NCBI GenBank assembly: GCA_041662665.1
Contig: JBAZSC010000001.1
Coordinates: 193,511 to 257,510, forward strand
DNA length: 64,000 bases
Source of the DNA: Patescibacteria group bacterium
GTDB lineage: Bacteria; Patescibacteriota; JABMPQ01; JAQVVF01
Direction of reading: 5' to 3'
Shown: positions 3,943 through 57,057 of the stretch, one piece after another
Position numbering within the stretch: position 1 is the first letter of the stretch
How the letters are laid out: each line of letters begins with the position of its first letter
The notes under the pieces: generated by a model
Told to the model about the DNA's origin: nothing
The model's database searches: none
What the model saw: the letters and a program-made list of their open reading frames with translations, nothing else
Made by a program: the position numbers and the translations under genes

Positions 3943-5328
3943 TTATTTATTTTTTGGTTCAACGTGGACAATTACTCTTTCCACATTTGTAATATTTTCG
4001 CGAATAATATTTTTTAATTTTGTTGCTTGTGCATGAGATTCTTCCAAAGATAAATTATTATCAGCATAGCAATGCATAGTAATATATAATTTGCCATTAA
4101 TTTTGCGAGCAGAAATATTATGAACATCAGCTAATTTATCAAAATTCTTAGCTAATTCCTGCACTTTTTGATTTATTGTTGAAAGTTCTGCATCAGAAAT
4201 TTTTTCACTTTTCAATTCTTTTGTAACAATTGGATCAATGTGAATATTTAATTCAATCTTGGAATCCAAAGCATCTTGGATTAATTTCTCTAATAAACTT
4301 GCTTTTTCATGCGCTTCTTCTACTGTCAAATCATTCGGCAATTCTAAATCAAAGCTCACAAATTTATTATTATCCAAATTTTCAACGACAATGTCATGAA
4401 TAAACATGCTATTTTTTGCAGATAATATTTGAATAGTTTCAACTATTGTTTCATCTTCGGTTTTAATTGAGCTGGTATGAATTGCTATTTCCGAACCAGG
4501 CACTTTTTTGTTAATTTCTGTTTTTAGGCCATTTACAATTTCATCAACTTTTTCAAGTGAAAGTCTTCGGCTAATTTTTATACCCATATCAATAAAAATA
4601 TTTGGACCTAATGATCTAACTCTAATATAATCAGCAATTATTTTTTCATTTGATTTTAAAATAATTTCATCAACAGTTTCTTTGACGCCTTTTGGTGCAG
4701 TATCAACCAAGACATCAATTGTTCTTTTTCCTAATCTGTATCCTGCAATAAGAACAAAGACTGCTACGCCAATTGCTGCGATTGAATCAGCACCTTTTAT
4801 ACCGAAAGCTACAAAAACCAAGCCTAATAAAACAACTGCCGAGCTATAGATATCAGAATTAAAATGCAGAGCATCAGCTTCCAGAGCTTGGCTATTTGTT
4901 GATTTTGCGACTTTGTATAATGCTCTAGACCTTGAAATATCAATTATTATTGAAATAATGATAATCACAAAAGCATACCATGTTGCATGGACTTCTGTAT
5001 CATGTTCAATTAATCTTTTAATAGCTTCATAAATAATCCAAAAGCTTGTTAGAAATAATAATCCAGTTTCAATCAATGCTGACACGCTTTCTATTTTTCC
5101 ATGGCCATATGGATGATCAGAATCTGCAGGTTTGTCGCCAATTTTTACCGCAAAATAGGTCATAACAGCTGCCACCAAATCTAAAGCTGAATGAGCAGCT
5201 TCAGAAATAATGCCCATACTGCCAGTTAAAATACCAACAACTAATTTCATTGCAGTCATTAAAAAACTTGCGATTACAGAACTTAAGGCAACATTCTCTT
5301 TTTTGTGATTTATATGGTTATGCGACAT
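3943..5328 (-). CDS. Cation diffusion facilitator (CDF) family metal efflux transporter with a duplicated cytoplasmic C-terminal domain
   Basis: It has six TM helices with the CDF signature (SEAAHSALD..., HPYGHGKIE). Two C-terminal domain-like modules follow (residues ~300-380 and ~385-455). Confidence 0.8.
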   Translation of the reverse strand: MSHNHINHKKENVALSSVIASFLMTAMKLVVGILTGSMGIISEAAHSALDLVAAVMTYFAVKIGDKPADSDHPYGHGKIESVSALIETGLLFLTSFWIIYEAIKRLIEHDTEVHATWYAFVIIIISIIIDISRSRALYKVAKSTNSQALEADALHFNSDIYSSAVVLLGLVFVAFGIKGADSIAAIGVAVFVLIAGYRLGKRTIDVLVDTAPKGVKETVDEIILKSNEKIIADYIRVRSLGPNIFIDMGIKISRRLSLEKVDEIVNGLKTEINKKVPGSEIAIHTSSIKTEDETIVETIQILSAKNSMFIHDIVVENLDNNKFVSFDLELPNDLTVEEAHEKASLLEKLIQDALDSKIELNIHIDPIVTKELKSEKISDAELSTINQKVQELAKNFDKLADVHNISARKINGKLYITMHCYADNNLSLEESHAQATKLKNIIRENITNVERVIVHVEPKNK

Positions 5329-5495
5329 AAAATATAAAATTCAATATTAACGTGAATAATATCATTAAATGCGATTTTGTCAATTTCTTATTAATAAAAT
5401 TTTAACATTATTTTACTAATTGTTAAATCTTTCTTCTTATGTTATATTATTTATAAATCTTAAAAATTATTAAAACAAAAATTAAACTAAACATT

Positions 5496-6467
5496 ATGAA
5501 GAAAAAGCAATCGGATTTTTGGGTAAAAGTAAAAAAATTATTTCCTGAATTTACTAAAAAAGAACGACCATCTTGGTATCTTGATTTAAAATGGGTATCG
5601 AGTTTATTATTTTTCATCTTTTTTGTTTCAGCACTTCTTATCTATAATTTTAGCCAGATCGTATCCAAGAAAAATGTCGTAGATCAAATGACAACGAATA
5701 TTCAAACTTCTTTGCAAAAAGAATTGACTGATTTTTTTCAGCTTGCCAATCAATTTTTAGCAACAAATGAAAATTACGTCAAAATAATTTTAAACGAAGC
5801 AAAAAATGAATTAGATAAATTAGCTAAAACTTCAGAAGAAGCTTCGAAACAAACTTCAGAACAAAGTGGCGAAAAAATTCAGCCAATTAAAGGTCTCGAT
5901 TTTTCGATAGATAAAAATCAAATTGATAAATATTCAAAAGAAATAGAAACTGCAATTTACAAAGAAATAGCTAATTCATTGCAAGAGATTCAAGACAAAG
6001 GATTGACCAATGCTACTGACCGCGATCAATGGCAAAAAGAATTGACTGACAAAATTAATTTTCCAAAAATTTATTCTCCTGAATTGCATCGCAAATATGT
6101 TTTAATTTCATCCTTATTATTTTTCATTTCTTTCATACTATTTTTCGGCGCCATATTTTTTAGCTATGCATGGGGCAGAGTTTTTACACCAGGACTTTTA
6201 ATCTTGTTAACTAGTATTCCAGGTTTTTACATATTTAATCGCGCTCATAATTATTTAATCCATTCTTCTTTAAAAAATTTAGCTGACAGCAGTAATTTTC
6301 TGATCCAATTATTTGCTCAAGCAGTTTATGATGCCTTTAATCAGCAGATCAATTCCATCTATTTAGTTTACAAAGTCCTATTAGTTCTTGGTATAATTTT
6401 AATGATCACTGCAATTGCTGGCAAGATCTATCACCATTATAAAAATAAAAAGAAAGCAAAAAAATAA
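5496..6467 (+). CDS. Hypothetical membrane protein (N-terminal TM, central coiled-coil, C-terminal multi-TM)
   Basis: The call rests on the ORF and its hydropathy profile only. Confidence 0.45.
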   Translation: MKKKQSDFWVKVKKLFPEFTKKERPSWYLDLKWVSSLLFFIFFVSALLIYNFSQIVSKKNVVDQMTTNIQTSLQKELTDFFQLANQFLATNENYVKIILNEAKNELDKLAKTSEEASKQTSEQSGEKIQPIKGLDFSIDKNQIDKYSKEIETAIYKEIANSLQEIQDKGLTNATDRDQWQKELTDKINFPKIYSPELHRKYVLISSLLFFISFILFFGAIFFSYAWGRVFTPGLLILLTSIPGFYIFNRAHNYLIHSSLKNLADSSNFLIQLFAQAVYDAFNQQINSIYLVYKVLLVLGIILMITAIAGKIYHHYKNKKKAKK

Positions 6468-22322: not shown

Positions 22323-22400
22323 CGAGTAGTATGTAGCAGGTAGTAAGTAGAAAGTAGTAAGTCTACTTTCTACTTTCTACTTGCTACTTTCTACATTTTA
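22323..22400. repeat. Complex palindromic 'gtagaaagtag / ctactttctac' word-repeat hairpin between pilT and the pilin gene
   Basis: The stretch reads gtagtaagtagaaagtagtaagtctactttctactttctacttgctactttctac. Confidence 0.5.
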
Positions 22401-23524: not shown

Positions 23525-24343
23525 ATGAATCTTATGTTAATCCTAGCTAGCGTAATAATATTAATATTTGGTTTAGTTATCGGCAGTTTTCTTAATGTTG
23601 TCATAAACCGTCTCAATCTTCATCAAAACTTAATTTCGCCAGGCTCGCATTGTCCAAACTGCAAACACAATTTAAATTTTTGGGATTTAATTCCTGTTTT
23701 CAGTTTCATTTTTTTAAGAGGAAAATGCCGTTATTGTCAAAAAAAAATTTCTTGGCAATATCCATTAGTTGAGCTGACAACTGCAATTTCATTTTTATTA
23801 TTATTTTTCAAATTTGTTGATATTAATAATATTAATCTTGATTTTCTTGTTATTTTAGAACAGCTTTTAATCTATTTCTTTTTCACAAGCATCCTGATAA
23901 TAATTTTTGTTTACGATCTTAAGCATTATTTGATTCCGAATAAAATTATATATCCAGCATTAATTATAACTTTGATTTTGCAAATTATCCCAATATCCCA
24001 ATATCCCAATATCCCAATATCTAATTTAATAATTGGCTCATTAATTCCAGGAATATTCTTTCTGCTTTTAGTCCTTGTTTCCAAAGAAAAATGGATGGGA
24101 GCAGGCGATGTCAAATTAGGTTTTTTATGCGGTCTAATGATCGGTTATCCAAATATTTTTGTTGCTTTATTTATCTCCTTTGTTTTAGGAGCAATTATTG
24201 GTATCATTTTAATTATTTCAAAGAAAAAAGATCTCAAAGACAAAATGCCATATGGCACTTTATTAACTTTTGCAACTTTTATTTCTATTCTATTTGGCAC
24301 TCAAATTATAAATTGGTACTTTAGCTTTTTAGGCATAGTGTGA
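23525..24343 (+). CDS. pilD: Prepilin peptidase PilD (A24 family) with an N-terminal zinc-binding CxxC...CxxC
   Basis: The motifs CPNCKHNL...CRYCQKKISWQYPLVEL are present, with multiple TM helices and a conserved GAGDVKL region. Confidence 0.8.
   Translation: MNLMLILASVIILIFGLVIGSFLNVVINRLNLHQNLISPGSHCPNCKHNLNFWDLIPVFSFIFLRGKCRYCQKKISWQYPLVELTTAISFLLLFFKFVDINNINLDFLVILEQLLIYFFFTSILIIIFVYDLKHYLIPNKIIYPALIITLILQIIPISQYPNIPISNLIIGSLIPGIFFLLLVLVSKEKWMGAGDVKLGFLCGLMIGYPNIFVALFISFVLGAIIGIILIISKKKDLKDKMPYGTLLTFATFISILFGTQIINWYFSFLGIV
23986..24021 (+). repeat. 8-nt tandem repeat (tatcccaa) x4.5 inside the pilD coding sequence
   Basis: The stretch reads ttatcccaatatcccaatatcccaatatcccaatatc. The unit length is not a multiple of 3. 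Confidence 0.8.
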
Positions 24344-24433: not shown

Positions 24434-25948
24434 ATGAACAAGATCAAGTATTATCTGGCAGGCATTTTTTGTGTTTGCCTAATGTTTGGAATCAGTCATT
24501 TTGCTTTGGCTGATTCTACAATTTCTGGGAAAATTTTAAAAACCAATGGTGATCCAGTAATAGGCGATACTGTTTATCTCCGCAGTAATAGCAATGTTTA
24601 TGTCGATACTACTGATGCCAATGGTAATTATACTTTCACTGTTGATGACGCACCGATCACTGATAGCTATACGTTAATTCCTAATGACATTAATTATATA
24701 TACGAAGTAGGATATATAATAGCTCATTCTGAATATTTTTATCCGCAATCTAGACCTATTTCAATTGTCGATGGTGTAAATCAAGCAGACATCGATTTTA
24801 CCATGAGTCATCATGGAATGGTATCTGGAAAAATCACCGATAGTAGTGGCAATCCGATTGATGAAGTTTTGTTCTATATGTGGGATAAAAATGGCCAATC
24901 TTTTTATGAATATTCCTATTCTGATATTCTAGGTAATTATTATGCGACTCCGCTATATGGTTCGAGCCAAAGCATTAATGCGCAAGGAAATTATCAGGCT
25001 TATGTTTTCAAAGAAGGTTATTTGCCAGTATATATAAGTAGCTTAGCAATTGTCGATAATCAAACTCTTTCACAAAATGTTACTTTAACAGGAAAAAGTC
25101 ATGTTTCTGGCAATATAAAATCGAAAAAAGGAACGAATCTAGCAGATATTGTTGTCAAAGTCTATCGTTTAGGCGATGATGACGCTTATGCTGTTTCACA
25201 AAGCGATGCAAATGGTAACTATCAAATTGATCTTGGTCGGACAGGAGATCCAGATGATTTTGGTGATTTTTCTGCCAAAGGAAAATATATTCTAGAAGTT
25301 GCAGGCGATGATACTTCTGCATATACAAAAAAATCAAAAAATATTTCTGTAACATCTGATGAATCAAGCCTTTCCAAAAATTTTACCTTAAGCAAAAAGA
25401 AAGGTTCTCTTTCAGGTAAAGTTAAGACCAAGAAAAATACAAAAATTGAAGGCGCAATGGTTAAAGTCAATTTAATCAGTGATCCACAGATTACTTCTAC
25501 AACATATTCTGATTCAAGCGGCAGATATAGTTTTGCTCACTTAACAACTGGCAATTATCAAATTACTGTTAGTAAAGATGGCTACGTTAATTATGAAATG
25601 ACTAATAAGAAAATCAAAAAAGGAACTAAAAAGACTTTTAAATTAACAACAGCTGGTAATATCTCTGGTTATGTTTTTGACAATGTTACCAAGAAACCTC
25701 TTTCTGGTATTTATGTTTATCTAGTCAATTCAGATATTTATGCTTCCACCAATAGCCAAGGCTATTATGTTATAAAAAACGTTCCTACAGGTAATCGCAA
25801 GATTTATGTAAGGAATTATAACTATCAAGAACAATTTTATTTCAAAGCTTCAAGTATCAGCAAGGCAAAGACAATCAAAGTCAAGAAAAACAAAGAGAAT
25901 AAAAAAAATAATTTCTATTTGACATCTTATCAAAGAACATATCGATAA
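24434..25948 (+). CDS. Secreted protein with multiple carboxypeptidase-regulatory-like (CarbopepD_reg / Cna-B-like) beta-sandwich repeats
   Basis: A signal peptide is followed by at least five repeats of the form SG.I...G.P..G..V.L......TD..GNY.F. Confidence 0.6.
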   Translation: MNKIKYYLAGIFCVCLMFGISHFALADSTISGKILKTNGDPVIGDTVYLRSNSNVYVDTTDANGNYTFTVDDAPITDSYTLIPNDINYIYEVGYIIAHSEYFYPQSRPISIVDGVNQADIDFTMSHHGMVSGKITDSSGNPIDEVLFYMWDKNGQSFYEYSYSDILGNYYATPLYGSSQSINAQGNYQAYVFKEGYLPVYISSLAIVDNQTLSQNVTLTGKSHVSGNIKSKKGTNLADIVVKVYRLGDDDAYAVSQSDANGNYQIDLGRTGDPDDFGDFSAKGKYILEVAGDDTSAYTKKSKNISVTSDESSLSKNFTLSKKKGSLSGKVKTKKNTKIEGAMVKVNLISDPQITSTTYSDSSGRYSFAHLTTGNYQITVSKDGYVNYEMTNKKIKKGTKKTFKLTTAGNISGYVFDNVTKKPLSGIYVYLVNSDIYASTNSQGYYVIKNVPTGNRKIYVRNYNYQEQFYFKASSISKAKTIKVKKNKENKKNNFYLTSYQRTYR

Positions 25949-26925: not shown

Positions 26926-27013
26926 GAGTTTATGATATCATAAAAAAGAGAAAACAGAAAACAGGAAAAAAACAAGCACTGTTTTCTATTTTCTGTTTTC
27001 TAATAAATATATC

Positions 27014-28066
27014 ATGCCTTCATCACCCGAACAATATCCGCAACTAGCCGACATCAAAGAATCAGGAGAAGTAAAAAAAGCTCCTGGTTTTGAACTTGAA
27101 AAATCAAAAGAGTTAGATCAATTTGCTGCAGAAGCAAACAAGATAGCTGAAGCAATTAAAGAAGACAAACCAGTTTTGCTTGAGCAGGTTTTAGAATTAA
27201 GAGAAGCATTAGAAAAAATGGTTGAATCAGATCCAAGAATAGAAGCAAAAAGACTATTTGGTGAAGGATATATGGGACCTGAAGAAATTGAAAAACATTT
27301 TACTTTAGAAAATGGTGAAAAACTATTTGAATATACGTCTGAAGAAAAGCAAAAAATTGTTAGAATGTTGCGTGAAAAATTAGATGATCCGCAGATTAGA
27401 GATTTAATTAAGCGAACACCAAAAGAAGAATTGCGAGAAAGATTCCAGCTTTTTCTTTTTCCTGATAAATTCAAGGATGGCACGCCTGTTACAATGAAGA
27501 GTCTTTATGAAAGATTCCAGCCAGAAATGACAAGGCGAGGCTTAGGAGAATTATTTCATGGCAAAATTGACGATAACGATTGCTGGTATTATAACAAGGA
27601 AAATAAAGAACCTTTTTTTACGTCTGATTCCAACCCATTATCTTGGAAACTATTAAGCAGAGGCAATCTTAAAGGATCTGAGAATCATGATTATTTTGAA
27701 GAAACAAAATTTTTACGAGAATACTTAAGACAAAACAATTTAGCAACTGAAGATGAACTCAACGAATGTAGCGATGAGAGATTAGTAGAATTAAGGCAAC
27801 TAAATGAGCGTGATTGGAAGAAAGCGGCAAAACAATTATCAGAAATCATGATTAATAAAAACTATCGAATTAATCCTTTAGAAGCTGTTTTTATGCATTC
27901 AATCAAGGAAAGCGTGTTGATGAGCGCTAGGACAGCCAAATGTTCTTCTTCTGGTGGATATATTTACGTCGGTTTTTATGGACATGGTATAGGTATTGGT
28001 CAATCATGGAATGGGAATGATTTAACCAGAGGGATTTCGAATTTGGGCGTTGCACTTTCCTGCTAA
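27014..28066 (+). CDS. Hypothetical E/K/R-rich cytoplasmic protein, tandem paralog A
   Basis: A 350-aa protein with no TM or signal peptide. The N-terminal ~170 aa are ~85-90% identical to the next ORF. Confidence 0.55.
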   Translation: MPSSPEQYPQLADIKESGEVKKAPGFELEKSKELDQFAAEANKIAEAIKEDKPVLLEQVLELREALEKMVESDPRIEAKRLFGEGYMGPEEIEKHFTLENGEKLFEYTSEEKQKIVRMLREKLDDPQIRDLIKRTPKEELRERFQLFLFPDKFKDGTPVTMKSLYERFQPEMTRRGLGELFHGKIDDNDCWYYNKENKEPFFTSDSNPLSWKLLSRGNLKGSENHDYFEETKFLREYLRQNNLATEDELNECSDERLVELRQLNERDWKKAAKQLSEIMINKNYRINPLEAVFMHSIKESVLMSARTAKCSSSGGYIYVGFYGHGIGIGQSWNGNDLTRGISNLGVALSC

Positions 28067-28187: not shown

Positions 28188-29249
28188 ATGCCATCATCAC
28201 CAGAACAACAACCACAACTAACAGATATCAAAGAATCAGAAGAAGTAAAAAAAGCTCCTGGTTTTGAACTTGAAAAATCAAAAGAGTTAGATCAATTTGC
28301 TGCAGAAGCAAACAAGATAGCTGAAGCAATTGAAGAAGACAAACCAGTTTTGCTTGGTCAGGTTTTAGAATTAAGAGAAGCATTAGAAAAAATGATAGAA
28401 TCAGATCCAAGAATAGAAGCAAAGAGATTATTTGGCGAAAGCTATATGGGTCCAGATGAAATAGAAGCATATTTTACAGTTCAAGAAGAGAATGGAAGAG
28501 TTGAAAAGCTATTTGAATACACTCCAGAAGAAAGAAAAAGAATTAATCAAATGCTACGAGAAAAGTTAGATGATCCGCAAATCAAAGATTTAATCGCTAG
28601 AACTCCAAGAGAAGAATTGCGAGAAAGATTTCAGCTTTTTCTTTTTCCAGATAAATTCAAAGATGGAACACCTGTTACAATGAAAAGCTTAAACGATAAA
28701 TTTAGCGCCGAAATGGAAAAACGAGGTCGAGGATCTTTGATGTATAAACATCCAAGAGAAAAGGAATGGTATTATAATGACGATCGTAGAGAAAATTTCT
28801 TTACAACAAATTCAAATTTATTATCTTGGAAGCTACTAAGTAGGAGCACTCTTAAAGGATCTATGGGCCATGATTGTTTTGAAGAAACAAAATTTTTAAG
28901 AGAATATTTAAGACAAAACAATTTGGCAGGTGAAGACGAACTAGCTGAGTGCAGTGATGAGAGATTGACAGAATTAAAACAATTGAATGGACAAGATTGG
29001 AAAGAAGCATCAAGGCAATTATCAGAACTTAAAATAAATAAAAACTATAGAATAAATCCATTAGAAGCTATTTTCATGCACGCAATTAAACAAAGCGAAA
29101 TATATGGCAGAGCTGCTAGAACAGCCTGGCGTTCTTCTTATGGTGGAATGCTTAGCGTCGGCGAATATGGACAAGGTATGGCTATCGGCGCTGATTATGA
29201 TAATTTAGATAAAGAAATTTCCAATGTTGGTATTGTACTCTCTCTCTAG
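28188..29249 (+). CDS. Hypothetical E/K/R-rich cytoplasmic protein, tandem paralog B
   Basis: A 353-aa paralog of 27014..28066. The C-terminal half is ~60% identical. Confidence 0.55.
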   Translation: MPSSPEQQPQLTDIKESEEVKKAPGFELEKSKELDQFAAEANKIAEAIEEDKPVLLGQVLELREALEKMIESDPRIEAKRLFGESYMGPDEIEAYFTVQEENGRVEKLFEYTPEERKRINQMLREKLDDPQIKDLIARTPREELRERFQLFLFPDKFKDGTPVTMKSLNDKFSAEMEKRGRGSLMYKHPREKEWYYNDDRRENFFTTNSNLLSWKLLSRSTLKGSMGHDCFEETKFLREYLRQNNLAGEDELAECSDERLTELKQLNGQDWKEASRQLSELKINKNYRINPLEAIFMHAIKQSEIYGRAARTAWRSSYGGMLSVGEYGQGMAIGADYDNLDKEISNVGIVLSL

Positions 29250-31854: not shown

Positions 31855-33267
31855 ATGTTAAACAAACTCAACTTAACCGATTTATCCGCCAAATTACAAC
31901 GCAAAGAAATTTCTTCATCTGAATTAGTTTCTGATTGCTTAAAAGAAATAAAAGAGCAAGATTCAAAAATTGGCGCCTTTTTGGAAGTCTTTGAAGAAGA
32001 TGCAATTAACCAAGCCAAAGAAATTGACAAAAAAGAAAAGCTTGGTCCATTAGAAGGTATTCCAATTGCCATTAAAGATGTTCTGCTAGTTAAAGGCAAA
32101 AAAAGTACCAGCGGTTCAAGAATATTGGAAAATTATATTGCTTCATATGATGCAACAGCAGTTGCCAAATTAAAACAAGCTGGCATGATTATTATGGGCA
32201 AAACTAACTGCGATGAATTTGCCATGGGTTCATCAACCGAAACTTCAGCTTTTCAAAAAACCAGAAATCCAGTTAATTTAGAATATGTTCCAGGCGGTTC
32301 ATCAGGTGGATCTTGTGCAGCAGTTGCCGCCAACTTTTTGCCAGTTGCTTTAGGTACAGATACAGGCGGATCAATTCGCCAGCCAGCAGCTTTTTGCGGA
32401 GTTTACGGTCTAAAACCAACTTATGGCAGAGTAAGCCGATATGGATTATCAGCTTTAGGATCAAGCTTTGATTCTGTCGGTCCATTTGCAAGATCAGCTG
32501 AAGATTTGGCCTGGATTTTTTCAACAATTGCCGGAAACGATCCCAAAGATTCCACATCTTCAAAACTTGAAACTCAAGAATTAATTAATCAAACATTTCC
32601 AGTAATCAAAGGCTTAAAAATTGGTTTGCCAAAAGAATGTTTTGGAGAAGGAGTAAATACGGAAGTTAAAGAAAAAGTTGAATTAGCAATAAAAAAATTA
32701 GAAAAACTTGGCGCCAAAATTCAAGAGGTTAGTCTTCCTCATTCAAAATATGCCTTAGCTGTTTATTATGTTTTATTACCAGCCGAAGCATCAGCTAATT
32801 TAGCTCGCTTTGATGGAGTTCGCTATGGCTATTCTTCTAAATCAAATGATTTGCTTTTAAATTATTTAGAATCAAGAGCTCAAGGTTTTGGCGATGAAGT
32901 GAAAAGAAGAATAATGATTGGCACTTATATTTTATCAGCTGGCTATTATGACGCTTATTACAAAAAAGCACAAAAAGTCAGAACAAAAGTTATTGAAGAT
33001 TACAAAAAAGTTTTTGAACAAGTTGATTTATTGGCAACACCAACAACTCCAACAACTGCTTTCAAATTTGGTGAAAATTCAGATGATCCAGTTGCGATGT
33101 ACATGAACGATATTTTGACAGTTTCAGCTAACGTTGCTGGTGTACCTGCAATTTCCATTCCATGTGGTTTTGACAGCAAAAAATTGCCAATTGGTTTGCA
33201 ATTAATTGCTAATCATTTCGAAGAAACAAAATTATTACAAGCTGCCAAGGCTTTTGAAACATTATAG
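31855..33267 (+). CDS. gatA: Glutamyl-tRNA(Gln) amidotransferase subunit A (amidase family)
   Basis: Amidase signature [13 protein letters not shown] and Ser-cisSer-Lys triad context. The start is taken at the Met at 31855, downstream of the hairpin element. Confidence 0.85.
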
Positions 33268-33447
33268 AGTTGAATCATGAATAAAGAATTATGAATTACG
33301 ATTTAGTTAATATTCAAATTATCTATAATCATAATTCGCAATTTTAACATAATTCATTATTCATAATTCTTGATTCTTATAAAATTTCAGCTAAATTTCA
33401 GAAACAAACTTTATACTATTATTGTTATTAATCTAATTTCCGAAAAT

Positions 33448-34776
33448 ATGTTAAGTAATACTAATTTAGAACAAAACATCAAAACAGAAGAAAAAGTAAG
33501 CAATGTTTCAAAAGTCAATTTTCCAACTCAAGAAAAAAAAGTTAAATCCAAAAAGAATTTAGGAATTTTGAAAGTTGTAATTATTTGTGTTGTCGTCAGT
33601 TTTATCGTTTCAACAATTGCTGGTTTTGCCTCTAGTGGTTTAGGCAATGTTATTGTCCAAAGTTTGAGCAATCGAAAATTAACAATTCCTGACAAAATAA
33701 TTACTGTCAAAGAAGAATCTCAAACAATTGATGTTGCCAAAAAAGTCCAGCCTTCAGTTGTTTCAATTGTTGTTTCCAAAGACCTGCAAAAATTATATCA
33801 ATACGATTCATCTCCTTTTCAAAACGATCCATTTTTTAAAGATTTTTTTCAAGATTCTGGTTTGAATGAGCAACAGCAACAAAATCAAAATCAACAAAAT
33901 GGCCAGCAAGAAATTGGCGGAGGTACTGGTTTCGTTATTTCTTCAGATGGCGTTATCTTAACTAATCGCCATGTTGTCTCAGATCAAGAGGCAAGTTATA
34001 CTGTTGTCACCAATGACAATAAAAAATATGATGCCAAAATTCAAGCTATTGATCCAACTAATGATGTTGCAGTTTTAAAAATTGATGCTAATAATTTAAC
34101 TCCAGTTGAGCTTGGCAACTCTGATGCTTTGCAAATTGGCCAAGACGTTATTGCAATCGGTAATGCGATGGGTGAATATCATAATACTGTTACTAAAGGC
34201 GTTGTTTCAGGCCTTGGTCGAGCAATTACTGCTGGCGATCAATACAGCCAAGCAGTAGAAAGCTTAGACAATATTATTCAAACTGATGCTGCAATTAATC
34301 CTGGCAATTCTGGCGGACCATTACTTAATATCGATGGCCAAGTTGTTGGTATTAATACAGCGATGGATTATTCAGGACAATCAATTGGTTTTGCGATTCC
34401 AATTAATGATGCCAAGACAGATATTGATTCAGTAAAAAAAGATGGCAAAATCTCCAAGCCATTTTTGGGAGTTCGCTATCAAATTATTAACAAAAGTTTA
34501 GCAACAAAAAATAATTTGAAATATGAATATGGCGCTCTAGTTTTACGAGGTACGAGCCAAGATGAAGTTGCTATTGCTCCAGGCAGTCCAGCAGACAAGG
34601 CAGGTTTAGTTGAAAATGATATTATCTTAGAGCTTAATGGTACCAAAATTGATTCTAATAATACTTTGGCGAAATTAATTGCCAAATATAAGATAGGTGA
34701 TGAAGTTACATTAAAAATTTCACATAAAGGCGAGGAAAAAGAGGTTAAGCTAAAATTAGAAGAACGAAAAAGCTAA
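33448..34776 (+). CDS. htrA: HtrA/DegP-family serine protease with an N-terminal membrane anchor and a C-terminal PDZ domain
   Basis: Catalytic His (TNRHVV), Asp and GNSGGPLLN are present, plus a PDZ domain and a Q-rich linker. The ORF is open from 33370, but the likely start is MLSNTN at 33448. Confidence 0.8.
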   Translation: MLSNTNLEQNIKTEEKVSNVSKVNFPTQEKKVKSKKNLGILKVVIICVVVSFIVSTIAGFASSGLGNVIVQSLSNRKLTIPDKIITVKEESQTIDVAKKVQPSVVSIVVSKDLQKLYQYDSSPFQNDPFFKDFFQDSGLNEQQQQNQNQQNGQQEIGGGTGFVISSDGVILTNRHVVSDQEASYTVVTNDNKKYDAKIQAIDPTNDVAVLKIDANNLTPVELGNSDALQIGQDVIAIGNAMGEYHNTVTKGVVSGLGRAITAGDQYSQAVESLDNIIQTDAAINPGNSGGPLLNIDGQVVGINTAMDYSGQSIGFAIPINDAKTDIDSVKKDGKISKPFLGVRYQIINKSLATKNNLKYEYGALVLRGTSQDEVAIAPGSPADKAGLVENDIILELNGTKIDSNNTLAKLIAKYKIGDEVTLKISHKGEEKEVKLKLEERKS

Positions 34777-34785
34777 ATAATATAA

Positions 34786-34823
34786 AATTAATTTTAAAAG
34801 CACTTAACAAGTGCTTTTTTTAT
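34786..34823 (+). terminator. Terminator hairpin aaagcacttaacaagtgcttttttt, copy 1 of an identical 38-bp module
   Basis: aaaattaattttaaaagcacttaacaagtgctttttt is repeated exactly at 36901-36938. Confidence 0.6.
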
Positions 34824-34868
34824 TTTTAAAATCATGTTATATTATATTTACTATAAAAAAATTTAATT

Positions 34869-34909
34869 AAAACAAAATGGAAACAAAATGGAAACAAAAT
34901 GGAAACAAA
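34869..34909 (+). repeat. 11-nt tandem repeat (atggaaacaaa) x3.7 spanning the start codon of the BNR-repeat protein gene
   Basis: aaaacaaaATGgaaacaaaATGgaaacaaaATGgaaacaaaatttgcg places three ATGs in three different frames. Only the first ATG opens the long ORF. Confidence 0.8.
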
Positions 34910-36895
34910 ATTTGCGTTGTCTTTTTTAGTATTCTTTTTGCGTGTTTAATCTTTGGTTTTGCAAAGGCAGAAACTTATACTTGGGAACAATCAAATATTG
35001 ATACTTCAGTAACAAATGTTACGTCTGTCGTTTCAAATGAAGGAATCATTTATGTTTCCACAAGTAGCGCAAAAGTATATAAATCATCTGACGGCACAAT
35101 TTGGACCCAAATAAATAATAATTATTTTGATGATCAAAATAATAACAATACTTTAAATTCGCTTTATATATTCAATAATTATTTATACGCTTCAACATCG
35201 GTCAAGACTCCAGTTGGCCCTGGCTACTCAGCTGAAGTTCAAAGATGTCCAATATCAACTTGTAATTCTCAATCGGATTGGGAAACTGTCGTTGATTCAA
35301 CTCATGGAATTCCAGTTGGCAGTAATTATATCCGCGCAATTAATTCAATATACTCGAAAGATAATTATTTATATATTGGCTATCTTTATTATACAACCGT
35401 ACTTGATTCTTATACTTTAAGAATATCGAGATCTCTTGATGGATCAACATGGTCAACTATTTTAACTGGAGATGCTAGTAGTACAAGCGCATCTGTTGCA
35501 GTAATGGCAACGTTTAACAGCCAGCTTTATACTGGTGAAGGATATTTTGGTACTGGAACGACAAGCAGTGTTTATTCTTGCACTCTTTGCGATGGAACTG
35601 ATTGGGTAGGATCAAACACTGATGGTTTCGGAGACTCAAATAATAGGACTGTTAAGTCTTTAGCAGTTTTCAATAACGAACTTTATGCGGGAACAGAGAA
35701 ATCTTCTGGAAATGCTGAATTATGGAAAACATCGGATGGATCTGCTTGGACGCAAGTTGGCAGTGATGGATTTGGTGATTCAACCACGCAAGGTTTTTAT
35801 TCTTTAATGAATTATCAAGATCATTTTTATTTAGGAACTTATGGAACTACTTCAAATGCCAAAGTTTGGGCAACAACAAATGGCACTGATTGGGAACAAA
35901 AAAATAGCGATGGTTTTGGAAGCAGTGTTTCAAATGTAACTGGATTTGCTACAGTTGATGGTTATCTTTATGCCGCAACTGGAGGATTGACATCTAAAGC
36001 TCAATCATATAGAACTGATCTTCGTCCCACACTAGTTCCAGGAAGTGTAGTCGCATCACAGATTATGGATAATTCTGGGCAAGTCTCTGTCGCATTTCAA
36101 GTTGAAGATCCAGATCATAATACCATGAAAGCAAAAGTTGAGTATTCAGTTGATAATGGCTCAACATGGTCAGATCAGATGACTTTCTCAAATCCTTCAG
36201 CAACTTTTGGTACGCCAACAATCGATAGCAGTGATGAATATAGAATACAAAATATTTCCACTTCGCAAGGCACTAATGATGTCCATCTAACTTGGAATGC
36301 TAATACTGATTTACCAAATGCAAATATTAGCAGCGTTTTGGTCAGAGTAACTGGCAATGATGGTGTAACAAGTACAGAGACAGTAAATTCTAGCGCTTTT
36401 AGTTTAGTTCTTGATCGTATTATTTTGTCTTCAAGCATGAATGGTCAAACACTTTCTATTTGTAATTTAAAATTTTTCTTCAAGAAATTACCAGCAAAGT
36501 TAAAAAAAAACAATGCATATTATTTAAAATGTGATAAATTTAAAAAGTATCCGCCTAAATTTAAAAAAGCTAAAAAAATGGCGTTGAAAAAGTATTGGAA
36601 AATTACAACTAACTTAAATAAATATAAAGCCAAAACCACTGAACAAAAATTCAAAATAAAGATCACGTATAAATATACAACAAAACAATTTAAAAATTTG
36701 AAAAAGAGAAACAAATTAGCCAAAGAAAAAAATCTTGAGCTTTTTGTTAGAGATAAAACTAAAAAATGGAAAGAAATTAAAGAAATATGGAAAAATGCCA
36801 AGTTAAAACATAATCTTAAGAAAAATAATTTTTCTGTAACTTATTTCAAAAAATTTCCGCAAAAAAAGTTTTTATTTAGTATTGGTTTAAAATAA
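34877..36895 (+). CDS. Secreted BNR/Asp-box repeat (beta-propeller-like) surface protein with a lysine-rich low-complexity C-terminal tail
   Basis: A signal peptide is followed by repeated S-x-D-G-x-x-W motifs (SSDGTIWTQ, SLDGSTWST, TSDGSAWTQ, TNGTDWEQ) and DGFGDS motifs. The last ~135 aa are K-rich low complexity. Confidence 0.6.
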   Translation: METKWKQNGNKICVVFFSILFACLIFGFAKAETYTWEQSNIDTSVTNVTSVVSNEGIIYVSTSSAKVYKSSDGTIWTQINNNYFDDQNNNNTLNSLYIFNNYLYASTSVKTPVGPGYSAEVQRCPISTCNSQSDWETVVDSTHGIPVGSNYIRAINSIYSKDNYLYIGYLYYTTVLDSYTLRISRSLDGSTWSTILTGDASSTSASVAVMATFNSQLYTGEGYFGTGTTSSVYSCTLCDGTDWVGSNTDGFGDSNNRTVKSLAVFNNELYAGTEKSSGNAELWKTSDGSAWTQVGSDGFGDSTTQGFYSLMNYQDHFYLGTYGTTSNAKVWATTNGTDWEQKNSDGFGSSVSNVTGFATVDGYLYAATGGLTSKAQSYRTDLRPTLVPGSVVASQIMDNSGQVSVAFQVEDPDHNTMKAKVEYSVDNGSTWSDQMTFSNPSATFGTPTIDSSDEYRIQNISTSQGTNDVHLTWNANTDLPNANISSVLVRVTGNDGVTSTETVNSSAFSLVLDRIILSSSMNGQTLSICNLKFFFKKLPAKLKKNNAYYLKCDKFKKYPPKFKKAKKMALKKYWKITTNLNKYKAKTTEQKFKIKITYKYTTKQFKNLKKRNKLAKEKNLELFVRDKTKKWKEIKEIWKNAKLKHNLKKNNFSVTYFKKFPQKKFLFSIGLK

Positions 36896-36900
36896 TTAAA

Positions 36901-36938
36901 TAAAATTAATTTTAAAAGCACTTAACAAGTGCTTTTTT
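36901..36938 (+). terminator. Terminator hairpin, copy 2 of the identical 38-bp module
   Basis: Same sequence as 34786-34823. Confidence 0.6.
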
Positions 36939-37047
36939 CTTTTCAAAAGTATTATTTTGTTGTAAGATAATATAAAGTAAATATAATTGTGATAGGTATA
37001 ATTTCCTAGTTACTAGTTACTTTTTTACTAATTACTAAGTTTTTATC

Positions 37048-37239
37048 ATGCCAAAAAAAACTTTGACCAGGACAAAAGCTGGAATTGATACAAAAATAAT
37101 TTCACGAACCGCAATCGCGACATCAATTTTTGTTTTGTTAGCTTTGATTGCCGGTTTTTCTTATGGAATGTCAATTAAATTTACAGGCGAAAAAAACAAA
37201 GCAGTTGCCAACAATTTTTTTCAACAATATATAAAATAA
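37048..37239 (+). CDS. Small single-TM hypothetical protein
   Basis: A 63-aa ORF with a hydrophobic core. Confidence is low. Confidence 0.3.
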   Translation: MPKKTLTRTKAGIDTKIISRTAIATSIFVLLALIAGFSYGMSIKFTGEKNKAVANNFFQQYIK

Positions 37240-37313
37240 CTGTTCAATTGTTAAATTGTTAACTTTGTTAATATTTTAACAATTTAACTATTTAGCAATT
37301 AAACAATTTAGCT

Positions 37314-37769
37314 ATGTTAAAAGACCGAATCAATAAAGATTTAATTACTGCATTAAAAGCAAAAGATCAGGAAAAATCTTCAATTTTAAGATTAATTAAT
37401 TCTGAAATCAAAAACGAAGAAATCGCCAAGAAAAAAAGAGAGCAAGGCTTAAATGACGAAGAAACTCAAGCTGTAATTGCTCGCCAAATCAAACAAATCA
37501 ATGATTCTATTGAATCTTTTAAGGCTGGAAAAAGAGAAGATCTAGTCAAGGAAGAAGAACAAAAATTAGCAATCTTAAAAGTCTATTTGCCAAAACAAAT
37601 AGAAAAAGCAGAAGTTGAAAAAATCGTTGATGAAGTCATTGCTCAAGTAAAGCCATCGAGTCCATCAGATTTTGGCAAGGTTATGGGGCAAGTTATGGCA
37701 AAAGTCAAAGGCAAAACTGATGGAAAAGTTGTGAATGAACTTGTTAGAAAAAAATTGAATGAGAATTAA
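37314..37769 (+). CDS. yqeY: GatB/YqeY-domain protein
   Basis: A 151-aa protein with MLKDRINKDLITALKAKDQEKSSILRLINSEIKN, typical of YqeY. Confidence 0.75.
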   Translation: MLKDRINKDLITALKAKDQEKSSILRLINSEIKNEEIAKKKREQGLNDEETQAVIARQIKQINDSIESFKAGKREDLVKEEEQKLAILKVYLPKQIEKAEVEKIVDEVIAQVKPSSPSDFGKVMGQVMAKVKGKTDGKVVNELVRKKLNEN

Positions 37770-37800
37770 GAATTATGAATCAAGAATTATGATTTGAATA

Positions 37801-38181
37801 ATGAATAAAACAAAAATAAAATCTTTTACAGATTTAAATGCTTGGAAAGAAGCGCATGTCTTAGTTATAATGATTTATAAAATTACTAAAACATTTCCCA
37901 AAGATGAATTGTTTGGATTAATTAATCAGCTTAGAAGATGCGCTGTTTCTATAACCTCAAACATTGCAGAGGGATTTAGCAGACCAACTTACAAAGAAAA
38001 AATAAAATTTTATTATACTTCTTTAGGTTCTGTAACTGAACTTCAAAATCAAATTTTAGTTGCGAGAGATATTGAATATTTATCAAACAAAGATTTTCAA
38101 AAAATTGCCAATCAAAGCATAACTGTCCATAAACTTATAAATGGATTGATTAAAAAATCAAAAACATTTAAAAAATCATGA
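37801..38181 (+). CDS. Four-helix-bundle protein (23S rRNA intervening-sequence protein family), copy 1
   Basis: AWKEAHVLVIMIYKITKTFPKDELFGLINQLRRCAVSITSNIAEGFSR is present. The gene is flanked by inverted 'aattatgaat' word repeats at 37770-37800 and 38176-38235. Confidence 0.75.
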   Translation: MNKTKIKSFTDLNAWKEAHVLVIMIYKITKTFPKDELFGLINQLRRCAVSITSNIAEGFSRPTYKEKIKFYYTSLGSVTELQNQILVARDIEYLSNKDFQKIANQSITVHKLINGLIKKSKTFKKS

Positions 38182-38217
38182 TTCATAATTCTAAATTCAA
38201 ATCATAATTCTTAATTC

Positions 38218-38775
38218 ATGATTCATAATTCTCGTAAAAAAAGTGTAGTCAATATCCCAAATGCCTTATCTCTTTTTCGATCTATTGTAATTTTTGTTGT
38301 CTTTTTTGCCCTTTTTGCTGATATTAATTTTCTGCTTCTTCAGATTTTAGTTGTTTTAGCAATTGTTAGTGACAAAATTGATGGCAGCTGGGCAAGACAT
38401 TTCAAAGAAACATCGAGATTTGGCATGCTCTTTGATTCATATGCTGATGCTGGATTTATTGCTATTTGTCTTATTTATGCAATCTTAAAATTAGATTTTC
38501 CAATTTACATTTTGTATTTTGGTTTGCCATTTGTTTTTATAATTTTACTTTTCTATTTAATATTTTCAATATTTGGCAAAAAAATTATTTCTTTTTGGGA
38601 TTTTGGCAAAAGGTTAGAATCAAAATCTACAGCCGTTGTATTATTCACTCTAATTATTTTTTATTTTTTCGATCTTCCGCTTAAAGTATATGTTGCTTGG
38701 TTCATGTTCGTTTATATTTATCTTTATTTATTTTATTATTTATATATAGCTATAAAACATGCAAAGAAAAAGTGA
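38218..38775 (+). CDS. CDP-alcohol phosphatidyltransferase family protein, paralog 1
   Basis: D-x2-DG-x2-AR...G...D-x3-D pattern (DKIDGSWARHF...FDSYADAG). Multi-TM. Confidence 0.7.
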   Translation: MIHNSRKKSVVNIPNALSLFRSIVIFVVFFALFADINFLLLQILVVLAIVSDKIDGSWARHFKETSRFGMLFDSYADAGFIAICLIYAILKLDFPIYILYFGLPFVFIILLFYLIFSIFGKKIISFWDFGKRLESKSTAVVLFTLIIFYFFDLPLKVYVAWFMFVYIYLYLFYYLYIAIKHAKKK

Positions 38776-39364
38776 AAAACCAAAAATAAAAGACATTATA
38801 AAAATTCCTAACATTTTAACAAGCATTAGAATAATAATTGCTTTGACAATTATTGCCTTATTTTTTACTAACAACCATATTTGGTTAGTAAAATGGCTTT
38901 TTGTAATCGGAATTTTAACCGACACATTAGATGGCAACATTGCTCGTCTTTTTAATCAAAAATCAAGATTAGGAGTCATGCTAGAACCAATAGCTGACAC
39001 TTTATTAGTAGCAGGTACAGTTTTGTTTGTTACTTTCAGACTCGATCTTCCAAAGTTAATATTCTTAATTTATGTTGCAGTAGTCTTTGTTGGATTTCTT
39101 GGAATAGTTTTTGTCTATTTAATCAGAAGAGAATGGTTCGCTGACAAACTGGTAGTTTCTGAAATTGCAATTGTTTTTGTTTATGGAACAGGTATTTTTT
39201 ATCTTTTTGGATTGCCATACAAAAATTATCTAGCGCTATTTACAATTGGCTTTGGGATTGCTGCTTTAATAGATCTAATCATAAAATTAAAAAGGTTTAA
39301 AGGCCGAGCGAAATTTAAATTAGAAAAACTTCAGAATAGCAAAGATTTCAAAATGCTGAAATAA
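38759..39364 (+). CDS. CDP-alcohol phosphatidyltransferase family protein, paralog 2
   Basis: DTLDGNIARLFNQKSRLGVMLEPIADTLL is present. It is a tandem paralog of the previous gene. Confidence 0.7.
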   Translation: MQRKSEKPKIKDIIKIPNILTSIRIIIALTIIALFFTNNHIWLVKWLFVIGILTDTLDGNIARLFNQKSRLGVMLEPIADTLLVAGTVLFVTFRLDLPKLIFLIYVAVVFVGFLGIVFVYLIRREWFADKLVVSEIAIVFVYGTGIFYLFGLPYKNYLALFTIGFGIAALIDLIIKLKRFKGRAKFKLEKLQNSKDFKMLK

Positions 39365-39471
39365 TACGAATATACGAATTTATGCAAATCAACGAATTTA
39401 CGAATGAGCGAATTCGCGTATATTTGCATATTTGTAGATTTGCATAGATTCGTAGATTTGTATTATATTTT

Positions 39472-42335: not shown

Positions 42336-42430
42336 GAGTTAAATTTCCGAATATCATAATATCCGAATATTTTTTTTAATCAAAGCACGATATTCGGATA
42401 TTGAGATATTAAGATATTAAAAATCTAAAC

Positions 42431-44820: not shown

Positions 44821-45771
44821 ATGATAACCCTTAAAGAATTAGTAAAAAAACCAAATTATTTAGAATCCGGTCACGGCACTTGTCGCGGTTGTACTGCTAT
44901 TCCTCAAATCGTTAGAACAATTCTCAAAGCATCAGACAAGCCAGTCATCGTTGCTAATGCTACAGGTTGCATGGAAGTCACAACAACAATCTATCCGACA
45001 ACTTCTTGGAAAGTTCCTTGGATTCATTCTACTTTTGAGGCAGTTGGCGCATTGGTCTCTGGTGTTGAAACTGCTCACAGAGCTTTAGCCAATAAAACAA
45101 TTCAAGATGCAAATGGCAAAGAAATAAAAATTGAGGATTGCAATTTTGTCGCTTTTGCTGGAGACGGAGGTTCATATGATATCGGTTTGCAAGCTTTATC
45201 TGGTATGTTAGAAAGAGGCCATAATTGTCTTTTTGTTTGTTATGATAATGAAGCTTATATGAACACTGGAATTCAAAGATCTGGAGCTACTCCTTTTGGC
45301 GCTGAAACTTCAACAACACCAGACGGAAAAAAACATCATGGCAAAGAAGAAAAAAGAAAAAATTTAACAAAAATTGCTATTGCTCATGATATTCCATATG
45401 TTGCCCAATCATCTGTTTCTCATTGGCAAGATTTATACGAAAAAGCGCATAAAGCTTTCGAAATAAAAGGTCCAAAATTTATGAATGTCATTGCTCCTTG
45501 CACAGTTGGCTGGAAATTTAATGAAAATTTAGGCATTGAAATTTCTCGTCTTGCAGTTGAAACAAATTTTTGGCCTCTTTACGAAGTTGAAAATGGAAAA
45601 TACAAAATTAATTACAAACCAGAAAAAAGAAAATCAATTGAAGAATTTTTAAAACCGCAAAAACGTTTCGCACACTTGTTCGAAGCAGGCAATCGTAATC
45701 TAATTGTTAAAATACAGAAAGATGTTGATCAGGAGTGGGAAAAGCTGGTAAAAAACACCAAAACACTCTAA
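44821..45771 (+). CDS. porB: POR beta subunit (TPP-binding)
   Basis: GCMEVTTT..GDGGSYDIGLQ is the TPP-binding region of the POR beta subunit. Confidence 0.85.
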   Translation: MITLKELVKKPNYLESGHGTCRGCTAIPQIVRTILKASDKPVIVANATGCMEVTTTIYPTTSWKVPWIHSTFEAVGALVSGVETAHRALANKTIQDANGKEIKIEDCNFVAFAGDGGSYDIGLQALSGMLERGHNCLFVCYDNEAYMNTGIQRSGATPFGAETSTTPDGKKHHGKEEKRKNLTKIAIAHDIPYVAQSSVSHWQDLYEKAHKAFEIKGPKFMNVIAPCTVGWKFNENLGIEISRLAVETNFWPLYEVENGKYKINYKPEKRKSIEEFLKPQKRFAHLFEAGNRNLIVKIQKDVDQEWEKLVKNTKTL

Positions 45772-45856
45772 CACTCCAACACTTTTTTAAAAACACTAAA
45801 ACATTAAATTTTTGTGTGTTCAAGTGTTCGAGTGTTTAAGTGTTCATCTCAACGTC

Positions 45857-56667: not shown

Positions 56668-57057
56668 ATGTTAAAAAAAATTTTAATTGCCGAAGATGAA
56701 TCAACAATGCAAAATGTTTTAAAAAGCAAAGTTGAAGAATTAGGGTACGAAGTTATCCAAGCATATGACGGAGAAGAAACTTTGGAAAAAGTAAAAACAG
56801 AAAAGCCAGATTTAATATTGTTAGATATTATCATGCCAAAAAAATCAGGTTTTGATGTTTTAAAAGAATTAAAAATAAAACAAAGATCAGAAATTCCAGT
56901 CATTATTTTAACTAATCTCGGACAAGAAAGCGATATTAAAACTGGCAAAGAATTAGGTGCGCTTGACTACATTTTGAAAGCTAATGTTTCTTTGCAAGAT
57001 TTAATGTCAAAAATTAGCAATTATTTAGAAAAAAACAAAAATGGCAAGAAAATTTAA
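56668..57057 (+). CDS. Single-domain response regulator embedded between pilB and pilC
   Basis: KILIAEDE...LDIIMPKKSGFDV...K receiver motifs are present. The ORF is open from 56644. Confidence 0.7.
   Translation: MLKKILIAEDESTMQNVLKSKVEELGYEVIQAYDGEETLEKVKTEKPDLILLDIIMPKKSGFDVLKELKIKQRSEIPVIILTNLGQESDIKTGKELGALDYILKANVSLQDLMSKISNYLEKNKNGKKI

Follow-up and report, generated by a model that had tools for sequence, protein, structure and literature searches.

Stochastic bet-hedging is well known in host-adapted pathogens. The opa genes of Neisseria carry CTCTT pentamer repeats in the part that encodes the signal peptide, and the number of units sets the frame of the mature protein. In the lic1 locus (licA) of Haemophilus influenzae and H. 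haemolyticus, 5'-CAAT-3' repeats together with three alternative start codons give rise to translational phase variation (PMC2992063), and the multiple-start logic is also described in PMC5084427. Genes of Neisseria meningitidis with variable-number SSRs have been predicted in silico (Siena et al. 2016, PMC5084427).

No paper on phase variation in Patescibacteria turned up in our full-text search. These bacteria (CPR) are very small episymbionts, most of them uncultured, that attach to host bacteria by means of surface proteins, and to our knowledge next to nothing has been described of how they vary those proteins. Here we describe an 11-nt tandem repeat at the start of a gene for a secreted beta-propeller protein in a 64-kb stretch of Patescibacteria DNA, hereafter the window, which is AT-rich (~30% GC). 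As in opa, the repeat lies in the leader-peptide coding part of a gene for a putative surface protein. As in licA, it is a non-triplet SSR at the 5' end of an ORF with ATGs in several frames, among which the unit number would select, and the effect would be translational and downstream of the promoter (PMC2992063). We lean towards reading this repeat as a slippage-prone SSR contingency switch acting on the translation of the propeller gene. The copy number would then change frequently and reversibly within populations, and the product would be under fluctuating selection.

Results

The repeat and its start codons

The tract is located at 34870..34911 on the + strand and reads AAACAAAATGG three times, followed by a partial copy, AAACAAAAT, which makes 3.8 perfect copies in 42 nt. 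Tandem Repeats Finder (TRF) assigns it a period of 11, 100% matches and a score of 84, one of the top three scores in the window, and it is the sole perfect repeat with a period >8 that TRF finds in the 64 kb. The two-unit pattern occurred in none of 100 dinucleotide-preserving shuffles. Eight perfect repeats of this class were found across the ~955 kb surveyed, and this is the only one with an internal ATG that opens a long ORF.

Each full unit carries one ATG, at 34877, 34888 and 34899, and three units add up to 33 nt, or 11 codons (METKWKQNGNK). Since the unit length of 11 nt is not a multiple of three, a change by one unit alters the frame or the start. An earlier note on this DNA had described an 11-nt repeat spanning the start codon and three ATGs in three frames, only the first of them productive, and both descriptions are borne out. 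ATG1 opens the 672-aa ORF (34877..36895, +), while the other two open short out-of-frame ORFs: METKWKQNLRCLF from ATG2 (34888..34929, +; 13 codons, stop TAG at 34927-34929) and METKFALSFLVFFLRV from ATG3 (34899..34949, +; 16 codons, stop TAA at 34947-34949).

The 672-aa product is identical to the NCBI entry WC663_01205, a hypothetical protein of a Patescibacteria group bacterium on a 645-kb contig, and an exact look-up of the product in the contig index returned no record. MAG assemblies can mis-handle repeats, and beyond this general point nothing specific suggests that the tract is an assembly or sequencing artefact. We regard such an origin as very improbable, given that the 42-nt tract is shorter than reads and than the k-mers of the usual MAG assemblers, that the start of the 672-aa ORF needs exactly this arrangement, that the same 672-aa product stands in records of NCBI and JGI, and that the unit also occurs in an independent assembly from another sample, as described below.

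To describe the effect of unit number, a copy-number series of 0-7 units was built in silico. With two or fewer ATG units the ORF has no in-frame ATG, so that three is the minimum number that yields one, and at three units the in-frame ATG is the 5'-most. At four or five units the in-frame ATG is retained with out-of-frame ATGs ahead of it, and at six the state in which the first ATG is in frame comes back, with 11 extra residues. The earlier proposal that gain or loss of a unit toggles expression therefore survives for loss, which is strictly off at two or fewer units in this series. A unit gain does not remove the productive ATG: with at least three units the distance between ATG and ORF is kept and only out-of-frame upstream ATGs are added.

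An ortholog with one unit fewer

In a protein database of 5.8e9 sequences, we found the window's own protein and one close ortholog (P0002), which shares 78% identity with it and is called as 463 aa; the next match shares 34%. The ortholog is encoded on a Logan contig of 7358 bp (SRR22388014_104181, hereafter L001), whose gene order, gatA, a 231-aa gene, htrA, the propeller gene, a 63-aa gene and yqeY, is syntenic with the window. At L001 3634-3664 lies a 31-nt tract with 2.8 copies of the unit and two ATGs, versus three in the window. The tract flanks are nearly identical in the two sequences, and the sole difference in the tract is exactly one unit.

In L001 the propeller frame, KWKQNGNKICVVFF..., runs through 669 codons to its terminal stop without interruption and shares 79% amino acid identity with the window protein. 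Neither tract ATG is in this frame, and there is no in-frame ATG, GTG or TTG before 4257 (~200 codons). The product of the gene caller, which runs from an internal Met (4257-5648) and covers 463 of the 669 codons, is truncated because the two-unit allele has no in-frame start. Near-cognate in-frame codons, ATT and ATA, are present upstream of the ORF in L001, implying that the OFF state may be leaky. The comparison of orthologous loci that the earlier note had proposed thus gives three units versus two, the latter without an in-frame start and with an intact ORF, for one comparator, a k=31 Logan contig.

We estimated omega between the window and L001 by the Nei-Gojobori method. Over the whole ORF it is 0.125, and over the 205 codons that precede the internal Met it is 0.136, with dS of ~0.7-1.0. 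Such a low omega at this dS suggests that the ORF as a whole stayed functional in both lineages and that its N-terminal third was translated through most of the divergence between the two sequences, and the purifying selection upstream of the internal Met implies that the start loss in L001 is recent or reversible. Judged from its sequence, the OFF allele of L001 is otherwise intact and non-decayed. A translational switch driven by the repeat would be expected to leave this signature, an intact ORF combined with a one-unit loss that removes the start.

An exact DNA scan for the junction of repeat and ORF, ATGGAAACAAAATTTGCGTTGTC, yielded 0 matches in metagenome contigs and 0 in genome contigs, and a protein-guided scan of metagenome contigs returned only a paralog-like locus with 29% identity (L002).

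Initiation of translation and the promoter

A tetramer resembling a Shine-Dalgarno (SD) sequence is present at -22 to -4 in 3 of the 48 ORFs of at least 150 aa in the window, against a background of 10%. Upstream of the starts of these 48 ORFs (-1 to -20), G is depleted and A is enriched. Both observations imply that initiation in this genome is SD-independent. The repeat unit itself resembles the start regions of other genes, e.g. aaaaaacaaaaATGG at 57041. The leader together with the repeat is less stably folded than 192 of 200 shuffles (z = +1.56), and in such an A-rich open leader the 5'-most AUG would probably be preferred.

Several other ways in which the repeat might act were considered and ruled out. 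Sequestration of the start by RNA structure is one of them, as the leader folds worse than its shuffles. A mechanism based on SD or ribosome-binding-site spacing is another, in a genome without SD motifs, and the earlier suggestion that the repeat changes the distance between the ATG and a ribosome binding site has to be given up since a separate site of this kind is absent. As to transcription, a match to the sigma-70 consensus, TTAACA-17-TAAAAT, is found at 34804-34832 (+), and the alignment of intergenic modules points to an extended -10-like element, TGTTATATT (34836..34844, +), that is conserved in L001. The repeat lies downstream of these -10 elements, which rules out a promoter-spacing mechanism and speaks against the claim that repeat changes would move the ATG relative to the promoter, a spacing that would stay unaffected. 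Because the predicted promoter elements are upstream of the repeat, a switch at this locus would be translational rather than transcriptional.

The switch that we favour would operate as follows. Each unit is a copy of the typical A-rich translation start region of this genome with its own ATG, and since 11 is not a multiple of three, successive ATGs fall in three different frames. The productive one is followed by two further units. In the three-unit state of the window, this productive ATG is the 5'-most and the gene would be ON. Slipped-strand mispairing or short-repeat deletion could remove one unit and lead to the state seen in L001, with no in-frame start, and the gene would be OFF. Gain of a unit would keep the productive ATG and place one or two out-of-frame ATGs ahead of it, which in a host without SD sites should capture ribosomes, so that expression would be lowered or abolished. 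With six units, the first ATG would once more be the in-frame one.

The 5' end of the gene is unusually conserved. The first ~120 nt (34881-35000) share 95-97% nucleotide identity between the window and L001, compared with 79% for the whole gene. Third positions agree in 29 of the first 30 codons, versus a fraction of 0.60 elsewhere (P=4e-6), and no other 30-codon window of the gene exceeds 25 of 30. Conservation continues for ~50 nt past the stop codon of the last out-of-frame ORF. In a comparison of two sequences, this synonymous conservation could be due to the overlapping short frames, to selection for an open leader or to a recent recombination tract.

The same conservation of third positions could be taken as a constraint on RNA, DNA or overlapping frames, as expected if the repeat were a fixed cis-regulatory element of translation. 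The units would then serve, independently of copy number, as a landing pad or as decoy starts, whose two tiny ORFs tune or couple the main ORF, and the reliance of an SD-less genome on A-rich open leaders would fit such a role. We consider this explanation improbable, however, because a two-unit ortholog without an in-frame start is not tolerable for a fixed element. In addition, the short ORFs alone leave the conservation past the last out-of-frame stop unexplained, and with two sequences, constraint and a recent recombination tract look alike.

The encoded protein

The ORF from ATG1 encodes a signal peptide, a beta-propeller, a beta domain of low confidence and a lysine-rich tail. The predicted signal peptide, METKWKQNGNKICVVFFSILFACLIFGFAKA (34877..34969, +), is based on the translation and on the AF2 model, in which residues 9-25 form a helix. 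Its layout has three parts, METKWKQNGNK-ICVVFFSILFACLIFGF-AKA, namely a repeat-encoded Lys-rich n-region, a hydrophobic core of 17 residues and an AKA cleavage motif. Residues ~30-380 are modelled as all-beta with pLDDT mostly between 75 and 95, and residues ~390-530 as a beta domain with low confidence. Foldseek searches with residues 30-380 gave 7-8-bladed propellers as top matches, with sialidases and sortilin only among many others. The product is thus a predicted beta-propeller with a basic tail, either secreted or located at the surface, and we infer its surface exposure from these features.

The earlier note had labelled the product a BNR/Asp-box protein, and this label rests on a loose resemblance. 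The canonical Asp-box reads S-x-D-x-G-x-T-W. The motifs of the product, S-S-D-G-T-I-W, S-L-D-G-S-T-W, T-S-D-G-S-A-W and T-T-N-G-T-D-W, follow S-x-D-G-x-x-W instead, with a gap between D and G that is one residue shorter. Pfam and NCBIfam searches with the 672-aa product gave no significant family, and no Pfam BNR model matched it even at E<=10; a homolog (P0003) matched BNR_6 (PF15899) only at E=2.6. Membership in the BNR/Asp-box group was rejected on the absence of both a Pfam BNR match and the canonical motif, although the propeller fold itself agrees.

What the product does share is a repeat of ~48 residues, W-x-Q-V...DGFGD...LYAGT, which is common to at least 100 database proteins, many of them from Patescibacteria and several with signal peptides. 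Proteins of this kind (DGFGD/W-x-Q-V propellers) occur in Patescibacteria, Chloroflexota and others, are Pfam DUF6242-like and have partners with NHL/SBBP repeats. They have the near-invariant W, GFG and LY columns in common with the window protein, and also the predicted propeller fold. The product is assigned to an unnamed DGFGD-repeat beta-propeller family. It differs from the other members in that no curated family reaches the threshold for it, and in that it shares the ~170-residue lysine-rich tail with its one ortholog alone.

This tail comprises residues ~505-672 (window 36390-36892, ~170 aa), is rich in K, N, F and Y, and is modelled with low confidence. Its omega against the L001 protein is 0.07, indicating that it is real coding sequence. 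The K-rich tail may act as a cell-surface anchor in this lineage. The ORF at 24434-25948, which encodes a signal-peptide protein and adjoins pilD, likewise has a K-rich C-terminus.

Genomic context

The propeller gene is bracketed by two 71-nt modules in direct orientation. The upstream module (34776..34846, +) contains the intrinsic terminator hairpin of htrA (34796-34818) with a T run and, behind it, a promoter-like region for the propeller gene. The downstream module (36894..36964, +) combines the propeller gene's terminator (hairpin 36914-36936) with the promoter region that serves the 63-aa gene. The modules share 82% identity and an identical core of 39 nt (34782-34820 = 36900-36938), and the hairpin reads AAAAGCACTTAACAAGTGCTTTT in both. 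The identical flanking terminator modules reported earlier are therefore real, with the corrections that the identical stretch measures 39 nt and that the first range had been placed ~3 nt off.

An HtrA-guided scan of GTDB representative genomes gave two further loci, L003 and L004. The HtrA identity to the window is 92% in L001, 86% in L003 and 84% in L004. Both L003 and L004 carry htrA, a single terminator-promoter module, the 63-aa gene and yqeY, and the propeller gene is absent from both. The downstream module of the window is orthologous to the single module at these empty sites. When the six intergenic modules were aligned, the upstream copies of the window and L001 clustered together and the downstream copies clustered with the empty sites, while hairpins identical to each other were seen only in the window. 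This grouping indicates that the duplication is older than the split of the gene-bearing lineages and that the copies in the window were homogenised later.

By this comparison of gene content, the propeller gene is accessory, being present in the window and L001 and absent from L003 and L004. Contingency-type surface genes often show such patchy presence. The alignments are equally compatible with an insertion that duplicated the module and with a deletion through recombination between its two copies. No recombinase ORF is found in 33000-39000, where the neighbours are gatA, htrA, the gene of the 63-aa membrane protein and yqeY. The idea of a mobile element that brings its own recombinase finds no support, with no integrase, transposase or attachment-site signature at the locus. 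The earlier idea of a cassette is consistent with the presence or absence of the gene at a conserved site and with the flanking direct repeats, but not with the lack of a mobility gene.

The same neighbourhood holds a second presence/absence difference, less than 2 kb from the repeat. An ORF of 231-254 aa lies between gatA and htrA in L001 (1455-2150), L003 (5248-5943) and L004 (5177-5941), and the window has only an inverted heptamer array in this place (33268-33369). Inverted arrays of this type are found in many intergenic regions of the window, where an imperfect array of a 7-9-nt unit is followed by an array of its reverse complement, the unit being specific to the region. Examples are located at 2186-2321, 22325-22394, 26944-27002, 33271-33376, 37241-37310, 39365-39460, 42342-42420 and 45762-45846, and others exist; the unit pairs include TTTCTAA/AAATTAG, AGTAGTA/TCTACTT and AACACTCC/GTGTTCAA. 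These arrays would fold into long periodic hairpins and could be terminators or protein-binding arrays.

Two further repeated features of the window deserve a description. The tandem paralogs at 27014-28066 (350 aa) and 28188-29249 (353 aa) are identical over >90 nt near their 5' ends (27067-27190 and 28241-28364), and an NCBIfam search gave no family for either. The prepilin peptidase gene pilD (ORF 23525-24343, +) contains the window's other perfect non-triplet repeat, 8 nt x 4.5, TATCCCAA, at 23986-24021, which encodes IIPISQYPNIPISN; a one-unit change would frameshift pilD. In three relatives at 82-84% identity, no change in the length of this repeat was found, and the segment, ILPIPEYPNISIQN, has the same length. 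The pilD repeat was for this reason not taken as a second variable locus, and its stability gives no sign of a general habit of repeat instability in these genomes.

Assembly and stability of the repeat

The unit number in L001 has to be read with its assembly in mind. Logan contigs are built with k=31 and represent non-branching paths after conservative simplification. Since the 42-nt tract of the window contains exactly one repeated 31-mer (34870 = 34881), a Logan contig would be unable to show three units, and the tract of L001 is exactly 31 nt. Ten rotated 31-mers (e.g. AACAAAATGGAAACAAAATGGAAACAAAATG) exist only with at least three units. The contigs are non-branching and the ends of L001 fall in intergenic repeat arrays of the inverted kind described above, so that a three-unit loop is likelier to break a contig than to collapse silently, a behaviour that we reason from the published description of the assembler (Minia3). 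The two-unit allele is probably real, or at least dominant in its sample, rather than a result of loop removal during graph simplification.

The coincidence between the 31-nt tract and the 31-mer uniqueness of Logan also fits an account of the repeat as a stable relic. The N-terminus would go back to an old triplication of the start region, and L001 would carry either a one-off deletion, which makes it a young pseudogene, or a k=31 collapse. The low copy number of 3.8, the dispensability of the gene, which is absent from L003 and L004, and the stability of the pilD repeat in relatives are all in line with this account. So is the slow switching of short tracts in the literature, where tetranucleotide tracts of 5-11 copies showed rare switching, if any (De Bolle et al., to the extent summarised in PMC2992063). 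It is harder to reconcile with an OFF allele that carries no other lesion in 669 codons at dS ~0.7-1.0 and an omega of 0.13, the part upstream of any usable start included, which would require the pseudogene to be very young. Moreover, both lineages have perfect units, and the sole difference between the tracts is one unit, which is the type of mutation that slippage makes. Taken together, we consider a stable relic doubtful, though deserving of serious attention. The small number of copies and the constant length of the pilD repeat have led us to temper the claim of a switch.

Discussion

As described above, the reading that we favour is a translational switch in which the number of repeated start regions decides whether the propeller ORF has an in-frame first ATG. 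If this is true, stochastic bet-hedging operates in the reduced genomes of Patescibacteria too. The locus would also provide a signature that can be mined in thousands of MAGs, namely non-triplet perfect repeats with ATGs at gene starts. Two properties of current resources bear on such a search. Fixed-k assemblies such as Logan leave tracts above k+period-1 bases unrepresentable, and OFF alleles of such loci are truncated or missed by gene callers, systematically so in protein databases.

A more detailed proposal can be formulated from the in silico series and the two sequences, which we put forward tentatively and hold unlikely to be right in all its parts. The locus might be a contingency switch that is OFF at two or fewer units, fully ON at three or six and attenuated at four or five, with the initiation region itself as the repeated unit, in SD-less Patescibacteria and for a secreted propeller involved in host-cell contact. 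The conservation of the 5' 90-120 nt might then reflect three-frame or open-leader selection, and the gene might be the first phase-variable surface gene of CPR.

Our comparison resembles the survey of N. meningitidis in that it combines an SSR near the translation start with a length polymorphism between genomes that alters the frame. In that survey a strong case needs variation within several clonal groups, and by this measure a range of one unit in one comparison is weak to moderate (Siena et al. 2016, PMC5084427).

The differences from the two best described systems lie mainly in the position of the ATG. In opa, a fixed ATG is located upstream of the repeat, which has many more units, whereas in the window the start codon and the charged n-region of the signal peptide both come from the repeat itself. 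The start codons of licA are also upstream of the repeat, with 5-56 tetramers, whereas in the window the ATG is inside a unit that is unusually long, at 11 nt, and present in 3-4 copies. A change in unit number shifts a fixed ATG in licA, while expansion in the window would add new upstream ATGs. The host of licA is a proteobacterial pathogen, and that of the window belongs to the SD-less Patescibacteria, for which the switch is deduced from sequence. With these distinctions, the locus is plausibly, and we think probably, a new member of SSR-mediated phase variation.
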